A DNA stretch of 64,000 nt from an uncultured Gammaproteobacteria bacterium (GTDB lineage Bacteria > Patescibacteriota > Microgenomatia > UBA8517): the NCBI GenBank assembly GCA_964610395.1, contig CAZSXP010000001.1:63342-127341 (forward strand). The letters are read 5' to 3'. Positions 30,896 to 36,404 of the stretch are shown piece by piece (position 1 is the stretch's first letter; each line of letters begins with the position of its first letter). Position numbers and translations under genes: made by a program. The notes under the pieces are model-generated. The model did no database searches and was not told the DNA's origin. It worked only from the letters and a program-made list of their open reading frames with translations.

Positions 30896-32101
30896 ATGAA
30901 ACGATTCAACTACAAAGCGAAAAATAAAGCTGGAAAGCTGGTAACTGGTGAAGTTGAAGCTGTTGATGATTCTAATGCTGCTAGACTAGTTCATGGAAAA
31001 GGACTACTTGTACTATCTGTAAAACAAGTTTTTGAAAACCCAATTGTTTTTATTAAAAATTTAAAAAATAGGATTACTCCATCAGATGTTGTTACTTTTA
31101 CTCGTCAGTTTGCAACAATGGTCAATGCTGGTTTACCAATTACTGAGTCACTTATTATTCTAAAATCTCAAGCAAATGGTTCAATGGGTAAAGTTGTTTC
31201 CCAAATTTTGGCAGATATTGAAGGAGGAGAATCTGTTTCAAAAGCTTTCATCAAACATCCTAATGTTTTTTCTCCAACCTACATTGCCTTAGTCAAGTCA
31301 GGTGAAGTTGGTGGGGTTTTGGATACTGTTTTAGTTCGTCTTGCTGATGATATGGAAAAGCAACAAGAATTTAAAGGAAAAGTTAAAGGGGCCATGATTT
31401 ATCCCATGATAATTGTTATCGGTATGGTAATAGTTGCCTTTTTAATGATGATTTTTGTTGTTCCAAGACTTACCTCACTTTATTCAGAGTTTAACGCAGA
31501 ACTTCCACTTCCAACCAGAATTTTAATGGGAATATCTGATGCTGTAATTAAATTCTGGCCTGTAACTCTTGCATTTTTTGTAGGTGGATTTTATGGCTTT
31601 AAAACGTATAGAAAAACTACTGCAGGAAAATTAAAAACAGATGAGCTTCAATTTAAAATTCCAATCATTGGCCCATTACAAAAACAGGTTTTGTTAACTG
31701 AGCTAACAAGTACGCTTTCTTTAATGTCTGGTGCTGGAGTATCAATTTTGGAAAGCTTAAACATAACATCGGAAGTTATGAGTAATGCAGTAATAAGTAA
31801 TGCTCTAAAGGACGTTTCAATTCAAGTTGAAAAAGGTTTTCCTGTTTCCTATGCTTTTGCAAAACATCCTGACGCATTTCCTTTTATTCTTTCTCAAATG
31901 ATTGCTGTTGGTGAAGAAACTGGAAAAATGGAAGAGGTTCTAAAAAAAGTAAGTCATGTTTTTGAAGTTGAGTCAGACCAAAAAGTTAAAACATTAACTG
32001 CAGCAATTGAACCAATTGTCATGGTTCTTTTGGGGTTAGGAGTTGGATTTTTAGTCATTGCAATTATCCTGCCTATTTACAACTTGACAAGTCAATTTTA
32101 G
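30896..32101 (+). CDS. pilC: Type IV pilus platform protein PilC (GspF family)
   Basis: 401 aa with duplicated GspF domains and 3 TM; its 3' end is duplicated at 36189..36392. Confidence 0.9.
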   Translation: MKRFNYKAKNKAGKLVTGEVEAVDDSNAARLVHGKGLLVLSVKQVFENPIVFIKNLKNRITPSDVVTFTRQFATMVNAGLPITESLIILKSQANGSMGKVVSQILADIEGGESVSKAFIKHPNVFSPTYIALVKSGEVGGVLDTVLVRLADDMEKQQEFKGKVKGAMIYPMIIVIGMVIVAFLMMIFVVPRLTSLYSEFNAELPLPTRILMGISDAVIKFWPVTLAFFVGGFYGFKTYRKTTAGKLKTDELQFKIPIIGPLQKQVLLTELTSTLSLMSGAGVSILESLNITSEVMSNAVISNALKDVSIQVEKGFPVSYAFAKHPDAFPFILSQMIAVGEETGKMEEVLKKVSHVFEVESDQKVKTLTAAIEPIVMVLLGLGVGFLVIAIILPIYNLTSQF

Positions 32102-32113
32102 GTACTTGACAAG
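31882..32113. repeat. 232-bp direct repeat, copy 1 (last ~73 codons of pilC plus 12 nt); left boundary of the island
   Basis: Aligns base-for-base with 36173..36404 at a constant offset of 4291; 3 mismatches, all synonymous or in the stop codon. Confidence 0.9.
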
Positions 32114-32139
32114 CCAATTTTAAATATACCCATAAGTCA

Positions 32140-32167
32140 TTGACTATTTGATCATTTCTGATATAGT
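32140..32167 (+). promoter_or_regulatory. Promoter of the precursor-peptide gene (TTGACT-16 nt-TATAGT)
   Basis: Consensus-like hexamers directly inside the island's left end. Confidence 0.45.
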
Positions 32168-32211
32168 TCTGCTTGTATTATTCTTACGAATTTACTAAGG
32201 AGGTGATTAAA

Positions 32212-32388
32212 TTGAAATTAATAAACAAAAATAGAGATTTGAGAGACGCAAAACCAATGATGGAAACCAAAAGTATCAAAATGGAAACATCAGATTGCGA
32301 TACTGCATGTACAAGCGATTGTGCACAAAGTTGTGGATGTGAATCAGATTGTGCAGCAAGCTGTGGTTGCGAAGGGTCAAACGAATAA
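32212..32388 (+). CDS. Cys-rich RiPP precursor peptide (MKLINKNRDLRDAKPMMETKSIKME | TSDCDTACTSDCAQSCGCESDCAASCGCEGSNE)
   Basis: Strong SD AAGGAGGTGA 8 nt before TTG; leader plus core with 8 Cys in repeated SDC/SCGCE motifs; immediately upstream of YcaO. Confidence 0.6.
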   Translation: MKLINKNRDLRDAKPMMETKSIKMETSDCDTACTSDCAQSCGCESDCAASCGCEGSNE

Positions 32389-32396
32389 TACAAAAA

Positions 32397-34523: not shown

Positions 34524-34546
34524 AAATAGGATGATATACTTCTAAT

Positions 34547-35200
34547 ATGTTTATATTTTTAATTAGACACGCAGAAGGATCAGGTTCAAGAGAAAAATGG
34601 CAAACTCCAGATACTCCACTTAGTGATACAGGGGCAAAACAATCTGAAAACTTAACCACTCTGTCTCGGTTCAAAAAAGTGGATTTAATTCTATCTAGTA
34701 AATGGAAAAGAGCTTTAGAAACGGCAAAAATAGTTTCAAAATTACTTGATAAAAAACTTCTAGAAACTGACGGAATTCAAGAACGTGAGCAACATTCGGA
34801 AATTTATGGTGCTGATAGGCAAAGTGATATAAGTAAGCGCTATAACGATGAGAATATTAAAAATTACAATGATCTTGACTGGAAATTTGAAAATAAGGAA
34901 GAATCAATAAGAGAAGTTTCAGAACGTGCATTTAATTTCAAAAACAGTTTAACATCTAACTATCTAAATAAAAGTATCGTAGTTGTGTCTCATGAAATGT
35001 TTATTAGATGTTTTATTACAAATATTCTATTAGGCGAGAATTATGAAGACAAAGTTTTTAATAAAATTTATAGATCGTTACAACTTATGAATACTGGAGT
35101 GTCGCTGTTGGAGTTTAATGAAAATAGAAAAACTTGGAAAGTATGGTATATAAATGACTTCGCACATTTGGGAAGAATAAAAACGAAAATAAGCAAGTAA
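34547..35200 (+). CDS. Histidine phosphatase superfamily (PGM-like branch) protein
   Basis: N-terminal 'FIFLIRHAEGSG' RHG catalytic motif, 'VVVSHEMFIR'. Confidence 0.65.
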   Translation: MFIFLIRHAEGSGSREKWQTPDTPLSDTGAKQSENLTTLSRFKKVDLILSSKWKRALETAKIVSKLLDKKLLETDGIQEREQHSEIYGADRQSDISKRYNDENIKNYNDLDWKFENKEESIREVSERAFNFKNSLTSNYLNKSIVVVSHEMFIRCFITNILLGENYEDKVFNKIYRSLQLMNTGVSLLEFNENRKTWKVWYINDFAHLGRIKTKISK

Positions 35201-35201
35201 A

Positions 35202-36125
35202 TTAATAATCTTTCCATAACCTTTCACTGTTTATAAATCTCAATACTTTTTTATGAGTTTCTCTGGCTCTTTCAAGGTATCTGGATTTTATGTTTTGTAG
35301 ATAGTCAATTGCCCGAGTAGAAATAAACAATATATAAAATGTCATAACTGATTTTTCAGTATCAGTTAGATCATTTGAATCTAAGTAACCATTAAGAAAT
35401 GCATCAAAATTTTTATTAACTCGATCTGATTTTATTAGATGATACAGATAGTAAGAAACATCGTTTAGTTGAGTCTCTTCCTTCCAATTCCCAAAATCTA
35501 ATAATTTCAATCTATTATCTGTTTTTACGATAGCTTGTCCGTCGTGTATATCATTATGGTTAAAAACTGGAATAGCATTTCCACAATAATTAAGCATCGT
35601 ATCTGAAAGTTTGTTAAGGATAACTTGAGTTTCACTATTTGATTGAAGTTCATTTAATGGGCTACCTAAATATTTACGTAATAATTCTGAATAATATGAA
35701 AAATCAGTTTTACCACTTGAGCTCCATCCAGTTCCTGAAACTGGTACTTTGTCGTGCATGTCTCTAGTTATTTTACCTAAGTCAATTCTTAATCTTGCAT
35801 TGTTACTGGTATATAGTAATTCCCCTTCAATCTTTTCAGAAATAAGCAACTTTTCACCATCTTTATTTTTGGCTAAAGCGTAAGGCTTAGGTACAGATAG
35901 TCCTGCTCCGTATGTCATATTTAATCCCTTCCATTCTCGTTGGGTGCTACCGCTATTAGTAGAAATTTTAATTGCCACTTCAGTTCTAGATTCAGATGTT
36001 GCGTAAAGGATAGAGTTGCCAGTGAATGGTGCAATTTCTTTTTTATGAACATTTAATATGACTTGAGGCACAGAAAACTCTGTATTCCTACTTTCAATTG
36101 GAAAATATGTAATTCTTTCTGACAT
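35202..36125 (-). CDS. APH/choline-kinase-like phosphotransferase
   Basis: Catalytic loop 'HNDIHDGQAIV' (HxDxxxxN) and 'LLDFGNW' (DFG-like); likely start MSERITYF (36125), since the track ORF start falls inside direct repeat 2. Confidence 0.6.
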   Translation of the reverse strand: MSERITYFPIESRNTEFSVPQVILNVHKKEIAPFTGNSILYATSESRTEVAIKISTNSGSTQREWKGLNMTYGAGLSVPKPYALAKNKDGEKLLISEKIEGELLYTSNNARLRIDLGKITRDMHDKVPVSGTGWSSSGKTDFSYYSELLRKYLGSPLNELQSNSETQVILNKLSDTMLNYCGNAIPVFNHNDIHDGQAIVKTDNRLKLLDFGNWKEETQLNDVSYYLYHLIKSDRVNKNFDAFLNGYLDSNDLTDTEKSVMTFYILFISTRAIDYLQNIKSRYLERARETHKKVLRFINSERLWKDY

Positions 36126-36172
36126 CTTATAAATTATGCGTATTGTACGCTTAAACAAGCTATTTTTACAAA

Positions 36173-36404
36173 TTTTATTCTTTCTCAAATGATTGCTGTT
36201 GGTGAAGAAACTGGAAAAATGGAAGAGGTTCTAAAAAAAGTAAGTCATGTTTTTGAAGTTGAGTCAGACCAAAAAGTTAAAACATTAACTGCAGCAATTG
36301 AACCAATTGTCATGGTTCTTTTGGGGTTAGGAGTTGGATTTTTAGTAATTGCAATTATCCTGCCTATTTACAACTTGACGAGTCAATTTTAAGTACTTGA
36401 CAAG
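36173..36404. repeat. 232-bp direct repeat, copy 2 (includes the 67-aa pilC 3'-fragment ORF 36189..36392); right boundary of the island
   Basis: The ORF-track protein at 36189..36392 is identical to the PilC C-terminus; the TTGACA at its end serves as the -35 for pilA. Confidence 0.9.

Follow-up and report, generated by a model that had tools for sequence, protein, structure and literature searches.

The 64-kb stretch of Patescibacteria DNA analysed here (the window) holds a cassette of 4,059 nucleotides (nt; 32114–36172) at the pilC–pilA junction of a type IV pilus operon; pilB, pilT and pilC precede it, and pilA, pilD and a run of pilin genes follow. The cassette contains five genes, for a precursor peptide, a YcaO protein, a SagB protein, a histidine phosphatase and an opposite-strand kinase, and is predicted to encode a thiazole/oxazole-modified peptide (TOMM) pathway. 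It lies between two copies of the pilC 3′ end. With moderate confidence, we conclude that the locus is best explained by turnover driven by homologous recombination, that is, by reversible insertion-duplication of cassettes that bear a pilC tail of their own. The features on which this account draws are the following.

30896–32101, plus strand: pilC, intact, encoding a T2SSF platform protein of 401 amino acids (aa; Pfam PF00482, 1.7e-64); its last 220 nt belong to repeat copy A
31882–32113, plus strand: repeat copy A, comprising pilC codons 329–401, the stop codon and 12 nt beyond; the three silent variants linked to the cassette fall within its last 58 nt
36173–36404, plus strand: repeat copy B, the displaced native pilC tail, with an orphan open reading frame (ORF) of 67 aa at 36189–36392 that lacks an upstream Shine-Dalgarno sequence
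32104–32123, plus strand: mini-tail of 20 nt (ACTTGACAAGCCAATTTTAA), a second, older copy of the pilC end (LTSQF-stop) at the left cassette edge

Copies A and B form a direct repeat pair of 232 nt with 98.7% identity (E = 2e-115), on which a repeat search, MAFFT and a blastn self-comparison agree; the self-comparison revealed no other long repeat in the 64-kb window. The repeat search reports 241 nt at 97%, because a match of lower identity runs ~10 nt past the 232-nt repeat. An identical block of 174 nt lies within the repeat, which overruns the pilC stop codon by 12 nt (GTACTTGACAAG). Copy A is the in-frame 3′ end of the intact 401-aa pilC and copy B is an orphan fragment. The three mismatches, at 32056/36347 (GTC/GTA, Val), 32089/36380 (ACA/ACG, Thr) and 32101/36392 (TAG/TAA, stop), are all silent. 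An earlier note on this DNA had described two 232-bp repeats with three differences, every one silent, and the three methods together with a codon comparison bear it out. Since 22.4% of random single-base changes in the repeat stretch would be silent, three out of three has by itself P = 0.011; when the tails of relatives are added, the 17–20 differences are silent without exception (P ~1e-11 or lower).

Contigs with and without the cassette were recovered by exact-protein look-ups, and the exact-match contigs derive from Rifle aquifer metagenomes; the genome records nearest to the window are metagenome-assembled genomes of Patescibacteria and Woesebacteria. The filled allele is reproduced in L002, in L003 together with L011, in L004 and in L056, with 100% identity to the window across the island, and L002 covers both repeat copies with the same three variants. 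The earlier note had proposed a search for variants in which a single pilC end is joined directly to the pilA promoter. Three independent assemblies, from three assemblers and three samples, contain such an empty site: L001 (SPAdes, ERZ5996431), L012 (MEGAHIT, SRR2177950) and L013 (an ANAN16 scaffold). Each runs from sequence unique to pilC through a single tail into pilA, and each has the copy-B variants at all three sites, so that copy B equals the empty-site tail there and in all downstream sequence. L001, which encodes an identical PilC protein, represents a distinct strain, set apart by a 15-nt indel and by ~180 nt of divergent sequence elsewhere. It shows no difference from the window over 27052–32055 and 36173–37787, and three differences within the 46 nt of 32056–32101. 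Because copy A has three changes in 46 nt while the flanks are identical over kilobases, and because copy B matches the empty-site allele, the three copy-A variants are an imported tract that arrived with the cassette, and copy B is the displaced native tail. The GTC variant at 32056 is also present in the tail copy directly left of the cassette in L017, a contig of a sister species described below.

No SagB contig was retrieved from the samples of L001 and L013. In SRR2177950, the repeat-crossing contig L012 stands beside no island contig other than the short L010, which is what a predominance of the empty allele in that sample would produce. These assemblies indicate that the population holds both filled and empty alleles of the cassette. 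The existence of empty-site contigs also supports the suggestion, made in the earlier note, that the repeats allow the island to be lost by recombination; its reading of an integration that carried or duplicated the 3′ end of the target is supported by these contigs and by similar repeats in relatives.

Differences between the strains outside the island are clustered and look like short recombination tracts. Between L001 and the window, ~40 changes fall in 180 nt (24875–25054) of the gyrB-like ORF at 23792–25735, and the 15-nt indel lies in an M16 peptidase ORF (27037–27051); between L002 and the window, 27 changes fall in 94 nt of pilB (29299–29392). Damaged cassette genes also occur. L002 has a 90-nt in-frame deletion in the kinase (equivalent to 35424–35512 of the window), by which the ...LLDFG... 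region is lost, and in L041 a 20-nt deletion frameshifts sagB.

A sister species from Hainich groundwater (L017/L023/L050), whose PilB, PilT, PilC and PilA are 95–97% identical to the window proteins, has a more elaborate locus. The order in L017 is pilC, a five-gene cassette, a 60-nt pilC tail, the TOMM cassette, a 220-nt pilC tail and pilA, that is, two cassettes in tandem with three pilC tails. The right junction of the TOMM cassette is identical to that of the window. The other cassette (L017 4810–9574) encodes NUDIX, GDPD and choline-kinase-like proteins, an unknown protein (409 aa) and a PvcA/DIT1-like protein (isonitrile synthase family), has no recombinase, and is predicted to specify another small-molecule pathway. 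The prepilin peptidase PilD of the two species is only 73% identical (window 37018–37710 versus L017 14583–15278; 62–75% nucleotide identity over 37158–37730) while the four other Pil proteins are at 95–97%, and it may have undergone allelic replacement.

Related cassettes are found behind other target genes. In L018 (Woesebacteria), with a YcaO protein 81% identical to that of the window, the cassette follows an ortholog of the window gene at 48965–50380 and lies between 94-nt copies of the tail of that gene. More diverged TOMM cassettes occur behind homologs of the same gene in L042 and L040, so that they stand directly 3′ of it in three lineages (L018 1–603; L042 38–352; L040 25–453). In the window, this gene (minus strand) lies some kilobases beyond the pilins with no cassette, has no Pfam or NCBIfam match and ends in ...RWAEVAP. 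It may be an older home of the cassette, or be functionally linked to it. In L032, from a distant lineage (YcaO 37% identical), two cassettes stand behind a trmH-like gene, together with two extra copies of the tail of that gene (340 and 87 nt), giving three tail copies. This array (2962–10190) consists of a cassette of sugar-kinase/HAD genes and then one with an M16 peptidase, a Gly/Cys-rich peptide, YcaO and SagB, with the 340-nt and 87-nt tail copies between, and is flanked on both sides by toxin-antitoxin modules. Thus, when the earlier note's test of homologous islands elsewhere is applied, repeats are present in L017, L018 and L032.

The tails of L017 extend the silent-site signal. Its intact tail has 15 nucleotide differences from the orphan, which affect 14 codons within the range of codons 37–73, all 14 silently; the intact tail and the 60-nt middle tail differ in three codons, again all silent. 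Together with the three differences of the window, 20 out of 20 codon differences among pilC tails are synonymous (3, 14 and 3). Comparison of the orphan tails across the two species gives a synonymous divergence (dS) of 0.29 and a nonsynonymous divergence (dN) of 0.009 (dN/dS ~0.03), against a dS of 0.43 and a dN of 0.015 for the body of pilC. An orphan that had been neutral since the species split should show a dN roughly equal to its dS. The far lower dN suggests that the orphan tail sequences have spent nearly all their history under protein-level selection. The earlier note had explained the differences by drift under purifying selection or by gene conversion; the purifying selection is upheld by the orphan tails, and drift after insertion is not, given the imported tract. 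The simplest reading of the silent-only signal is turnover, the orphans being recently displaced or frequently exchanged copies of a functional allele. Indeed, the copy-B type of tail is the working pilC end in cassette-free genomes such as L001. In L017, the 3′ part of the intact gene is the outlier and that of the orphan resembles the usual allele of the clade, which fits a foreign tail that arrived with its cargo.

Older traces of such events are also preserved. The mini-tail at 32104–32123 matches the pilC end at 18 of 20 positions, and extends to at least 26 nt in L017, L021 and L052. Its AGC serine codon is the pilC allele of a third species (L058/L059), whose pilC–pilA junction is empty. 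The mini-tail is the remnant of yet another pilC end, so that successive displacements of the tail are recorded, as in fossils, at the pilC–pilA locus. After the stop codon, the last 20 nt of pilC occur a second time as a tandem duplicate, with the form ACTTGACAAGTCAATTTTAG GT ACTTGACAAGCCAATTTTAA (window 32082–32123 and 36373–36414). The tandem copy in front of pilA has decayed further and contains the −35 box of the promoter-like site of this gene; a remnant of coding sequence has therefore been re-employed as a promoter element.

We propose that the cassette would travel as a unit with its own copy of the last ~220 nt of pilC. The incoming tail would recombine with the chromosomal pilC tail and the unit would be inserted (insertion-duplication of the Campbell type). 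The incoming tail would then complete pilC as copy A, and the native tail would be displaced to the far side, beside pilA, as copy B, with pilA keeping its own promoter. Recombination between the two tails would remove the cassette and restore the normal pilC–pilA junction. Each tail type would be the working pilC end in some genomes, which would place both under protein-level purifying selection; the silence of all tail differences could be explained by this proposed alternation. Repeated rounds would stack cassettes and leave tail fragments behind. The recombination is probably of the RecA type rather than catalysed by a site-specific enzyme supplied in trans. We infer, in addition, a circular intermediate of tail plus cargo and the movement of DNA from cell to cell, for example by uptake through a pilus/competence system.

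Homologous recombination is favoured over a dedicated enzyme because no recombinase gene accompanies the cassettes, repeat lengths are set by the cassette, repeat starts are dissimilar and switch points differ. The Pfam and NCBIfam scans detected no recombinase or integrase among the five cassette proteins of the window, as the earlier note had stated for the island, or in the other cassette of L017, and no integrase was present in any of the five cassette arrays examined or in their flanks, which extended to as much as 10 kb. The repeats are 60, 94, 220 or 340 nt long, depending on cassette and target. Inspection of the junction sequences by eye revealed no obvious resemblance between the start of the pilC repeat and that of the repeat at the target gene of L018. 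The switch from the cassette-linked to the pilA-linked tail type also differs in position: it lies at codon 36/37 in L017 and at about codon 66 in L055, and in the window it precedes codon 58. The expected intermediate may have been captured in sample H51 from Hainich, where L052 contains the kinase, a full tail and the left end of the cassette and joins both ends of contig L021 (4,210 nt, 65x) into a unit of 4,333 nt; this junction is possibly that of an excised circle or of a head-to-tail tandem.

Several points weigh against this account. The empty sites rest on assemblies, and collapse of the repeat by an assembler would likewise give an apparent empty site with copy-B variants. No circular-junction contig is present in the window's own Rifle population, in which all contigs break at the repeat, and L052 could be a mis-join through a 108-nt stretch common to the tail copies, if the H51 strain lacks the first cassette. 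In L032, the tails match at only ~82% identity along part of their length, a low value for a RecA-dependent crossover. Flanking repeats are absent from the more distant cassettes (L022, L024, L027, L019/L033 and L029); we accordingly rejected repeats as an inherent trait of the cassette family. The 5′ parts of the two copies are identical within a genome and differ between species, which a simple symmetric crossover does not predict; this concerted pattern points to additional gene conversion, which is needed under any model and is not fully explained. Finally, the model does not account for the first acquisition of a new target-gene tail by a cassette (pilC versus the gene at the L018 site).

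The main rival to homologous recombination is a trans-acting integrase. The locus would then be a decayed site-specific element, similar to a cis-mobilizable element (CIME), in which a tyrosine or serine integrase, lost or supplied in trans, uses a core within the pilC tail; the repeats would be attL and attR, the attP of the element would carry a pilC-like 3′ end that restores the gene, a helper element may encode the integrase, and the tandem arrays would arise by accretion. We regard this as rather unlikely, though it deserves serious attention. CIMEs have by definition lost their integration and transfer genes and kept attL and attR (PMC5704250), and here too flanking repeats are retained and no recombination genes were found. 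The architecture fits, with repeats of the target 3′ end, precise empty sites, the newer element beside the intact gene and the older one pushed outward, and Tycheposon islands show both tandem elements between partial target copies and integrase-less remnants (bioRxiv 10.1101/2020.12.28.424599). Considered as an integrative element at a gene 3′ end, the locus has repeats containing that end, an intact gene and, at assembly level, an empty site, and lacks an internal integrase. The right junction of the TOMM cassette is fixed at the same pilC position in two species, and tails of 82% identity, as in L032, suit a short-core enzyme better than RecA. The tail-type switch points, on the other hand, vary among strains; different cargo at pilC starts at −60 rather than −220, and the same cargo has unrelated repeat starts at pilC and at its other target. 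Repeats of 60–340 nt are far above typical att cores (~40 nt; bioRxiv 10.1101/2020.12.28.424599). Besides the lack of an integrase in or near the five arrays, the only recombinase of the window is a Xer-type tyrosine recombinase at 15366–16298, 15.6 kb upstream, among yebC, lytR and gyrA-type housekeeping genes. The earlier note was right that a XerC/D-like recombinase is encoded ~16 kb upstream, but a relation to the island does not hold, as this is a single gene of housekeeping type in a housekeeping neighbourhood; a tblastn search with its protein revealed no other Xer-like copy in any compared locus. The pilC tail and the cassette are absent from viral, phage and plasmid collections, and no cognate integrative and conjugative element (ICE), integrative and mobilizable element (IME) or integrase for the pilC-tail site was present in these collections or in the compared loci, no dedicated genome or metagenome search having been made.

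The remaining explanations are all improbable, to increasing degrees. If the orphan tail were functional, as a 67-aa two-helix mini-protein or as a coding sequence needed in cis, selection rather than turnover would account for the silent-only differences. An intact, ATG-initiated 67-aa ORF in both species and the dN/dS of ~0.03 agree with this, whereas the ATG at 36189 lacks the Shine-Dalgarno sequence that the precursor gene has (GGAGG), no orphan exists as a separate copy in empty-site strains, and shorter remnants (60, 22–33 and 87 nt) cannot encode the ORF, yet also differ mostly at silent sites. Many 67-aa "proteins" in the databases are, moreover, split or frameshifted pilC genes or contig-end fragments. 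Slightly less probable still is duplication of the tail in place in one lineage, by slippage or unequal crossover, followed by capture of foreign DNA and then drift or gene conversion. Local duplications do occur, since even the empty site has a second, tandem pilC end of 22 nt, and the 5′ repeat parts do evolve in concert within each genome; against this, copy B is the empty-site allele, with all three differences in copy A within 46 nt and kilobases of identical flank, the GTC variant is cassette-linked in two species, the intact tail of L017 looks foreign and its orphan 3′ part is the usual clade allele, and this architecture is also seen with different cargo and behind different target genes. 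Least probable of all is that faulty assembly produced the repeat, the empty-site contigs or both. Metagenome assembly fails, through breaks or false joins, where a repeat exceeds k; here 174 nt are identical compared to k = 127–141, and N-gaps are present in L002, L013, L044 and L046. The filled structure with the same three variants nevertheless appears in independent assemblies (the window, L002, L003 with L011, and L056), diverged copies exist in other species (L017 and L018), and L001 is a distinct strain by its indel and its divergent patch elsewhere.

Other classes of element were considered and rejected. A Xer-dependent element (IMEX) is contradicted by the absence of a dif-like palindrome at the repeat boundaries and by the housekeeping character of the Xer gene; a palindrome scan gave one 11-7-11 site with two mismatches, in mid-repeat (32004–32032), which corresponds to the background rate of 0.7 per 330 nt. 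A transposon or insertion sequence does not agree with the lack of a transposase domain and of terminal inverted repeats at 32114/36172, or with a duplication of 232 nt. For a diversity-generating retroelement, there is no reverse transcriptase domain, and the mismatches (C/A, A/G and G/A) are not adenine-specific and are all silent. The spacers are fragments of the coding 3′ end of the upstream gene rather than attC-like palindromes, and no IntI was found, so that an integron cassette array was also discarded. A phage or plasmid origin was dismissed, as viral contigs contain neither the tail pattern nor the YcaO protein and the island is unmatched in phages; its nucleotide matches among plasmids are limited to short SagB matches in Bacillus plasmids. 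Orphan tails were also tried as markers of cargo. In a search with the 67-aa tail protein, the six matches inspected were nearly all frameshifted or split pilC genes, long-read errors or contig-end fragments, and no new cargo emerged; L044 and L046 have N-gaps at the same position of pilC, which is a weak hint only.

The turnover proposed here can be compared with several known systems. The fda gene is the target of elements related to ICESt1 and ICESt3, which accrete in tandem at the 3′ end of this protein-coding gene. CIMEs and accretion of the ICESt1/ICESt3 type resemble the present locus in the absence of integration and transfer genes, the gene-end copies between tandem units and the precise empty sites. 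However, the att sites of CIMEs are short cores with a known cognate integrase, whereas the repeats here are 60–340 nt long, with a length that depends on the cassette and with variable breakpoints, and no integrase or helper was found; the variable recombinant breakpoints point instead to homologous recombination. Similarities are also apparent with the Tycheposon-seeded genomic islands of Prochlorococcus (bioRxiv 10.1101/2020.12.28.424599) and the ssrA-specific islands of Dehalococcoides (PMC3146451). These occur in streamlined genomes with few classical mobile elements, show presence/absence heterogeneity and tandem or circular junctions, and stack cargo at one conserved gene between partial copies, newer arrivals displacing older ones outward. 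They target tRNA or tmRNA genes and carry, or derive from carriers of, tyrosine or serine recombinases; the targets described here are protein-coding (pilC, the trmH-like gene and an unnamed gene), and no recombinase is associated with the cassettes.

Insertion-duplication of the Campbell type, by circular DNA that carries a gene 3′ fragment, is familiar from the integration of suicide vectors in the laboratory. It predicts the structure of the window: an intact gene with the incoming 3′ part, the cargo, an orphan that runs from the fragment boundary to the native end, reversibility and variable crossovers. We know of no description of such integration as a natural, recurrent route of cassette mobility, and the literature on direct-repeat islands of the Candidate Phyla Radiation (CPR) or on YcaO clusters in Patescibacteria yielded no description of the pilC–pilA cassette locus.

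An island between target gene 3′ ends, with empty sites and tandem accretion, is thus of a kind already known. What is unusual is the protein-coding targets in Patescibacteria, the long and variable repeats, the lack of a detected integrase, and a TOMM cassette inside a pilus operon with a strong signature of purifying selection on "dead" tails, a signature that appears to reveal a long-lived turnover of gain and loss. Patescibacteria (CPR) have tiny genomes with few recognisable mobile elements and few secondary-metabolite clusters. The locus offers a concrete way in which such genomes could gain and lose an accessory operon, here for a candidate modified-peptide toxin or signal, with the essential pilus operon undisrupted. 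Silent-only divergence of orphan tails would be a signature of long-lived presence/absence turnover, and could guide the search for such cassettes behind other genes. If the process is truly integrase-free, a simple recombination-based mode of mobility would be added to those already known; should a trans-acting integrase be found, the locus would be a clear case, from the CPR, of CIME-like accretion behind a gene for a protein. More speculatively, and we offer this as a possibility rather than an expectation, tail-bearing cassettes may be a class of integrase-free mobile units in Patescibacteria. Such a unit would consist of a cargo operon and 60–340 nt of the 3′ end of a conserved host gene as a portable homology arm. 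It would circularise between flanking tails, pass between cells as DNA and re-insert by a RecA-mediated single crossover, with tail types alternating as the working gene end; transfer could possibly proceed through the same type IV pilus/competence machinery whose operon the cassette occupies. Ultra-small genomes without classical mobile elements would thereby have a general means of keeping their pangenome flexible.

The genes and regulatory sites of the cassette, and those immediately downstream, are as follows.

32140–32167, plus strand: promoter-like site of the precursor operon (TTGACT, 16-nt spacer, TATAGT, with an upstream TG), kept in L017 and L018
32212–32388, plus strand: precursor peptide, 58 aa from a TTG behind GGAGG, in an ORF open from 32173; core ...SDCDTACTSDCAQSCGCESDCAASCGCEGSNE, with 8 Cys
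32397–33743, plus strand: YcaO cyclodehydratase of the SagD family, 448 aa, GTG start (TIGR03604, 281 bits versus a cut-off of 219; PF02624)
33747–34523, plus strand: SagB-type flavin mononucleotide (FMN) dehydrogenase, 258 aa (TIGR03605, 164 bits versus a cut-off of 78)
34547–35200, plus strand: histidine-phosphatase superfamily protein, 217 aa (PF00300, 1.5e-27)
35202–36125, minus strand: APH/CotS-like kinase, 307 aa, starting MSERITYF (PF01636; gene calls on L003)
36142–36171, minus strand: promoter-like site of the kinase (TTGTAA, 18-nt spacer, TACAAT), 1 nt from the start of copy B
36397–36425, plus strand: promoter-like site of pilA (TTGACA, 17-nt spacer, TATTGT), with the −35 box inside the last 12 nt of the repeat
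36438–37037, plus strand: pilA, major pilin, 199 aa (PF07963), followed by the prepilin peptidase and further pilins

The cassette contains the hallmarks of a TOMM pathway: a SagD-family YcaO, a SagB dehydrogenase and an adjacent small precursor rich in Cys, Ser and Thr. All eight cysteines of the precursor ORF (32173–32388) lie within its last 31 residues, and homologous peptides are present in L017, L018, L022 and L042. In these components the cassette resembles TOMM/linear azol(in)e clusters, such as sagBCD of streptolysin S and those of the heterocycloanthracin type; it differs from them in the additional histidine phosphatase and APH-like kinase, in its Patescibacteria host and in the lack of a detected SagC/E1-like partner. 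No domain of an E1-like/SagC partner, separate or fused, was detected in the Pfam and NCBIfam scans of the cassette proteins, with an undetected N-terminal recognition element in the YcaO protein being possible. The TOMM core (precursor, SagD-type YcaO and SagB) is always accompanied by the phosphatase and the kinase (window 32212–36125, L024, L027, L029 and L031), even at 40–55% YcaO identity. This constant company, together with the undetected SagC/E1-like partner, suggests an unusual tailoring or immunity step that may involve phosphorylation and dephosphorylation.

Two outward promoter-like sites abut the cassette junctions (32140–32167, plus; 36171–36142, minus), and that of the kinase marks the right cassette edge. 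The right junction, at which ...CTATTTTTACAAA abuts TTTTATTC, is identical in the window, L017, L021, L052 and L055. The GC content of the island is 0.302, compared to 0.332 for the window, and 2.3% of equal-sized windows elsewhere are as low. Downstream, five pilin-like genes (36450–39766) have a common N-terminal prepilin segment of ~60 nt, which is ordinary and fits a major pilin with minor pilins.

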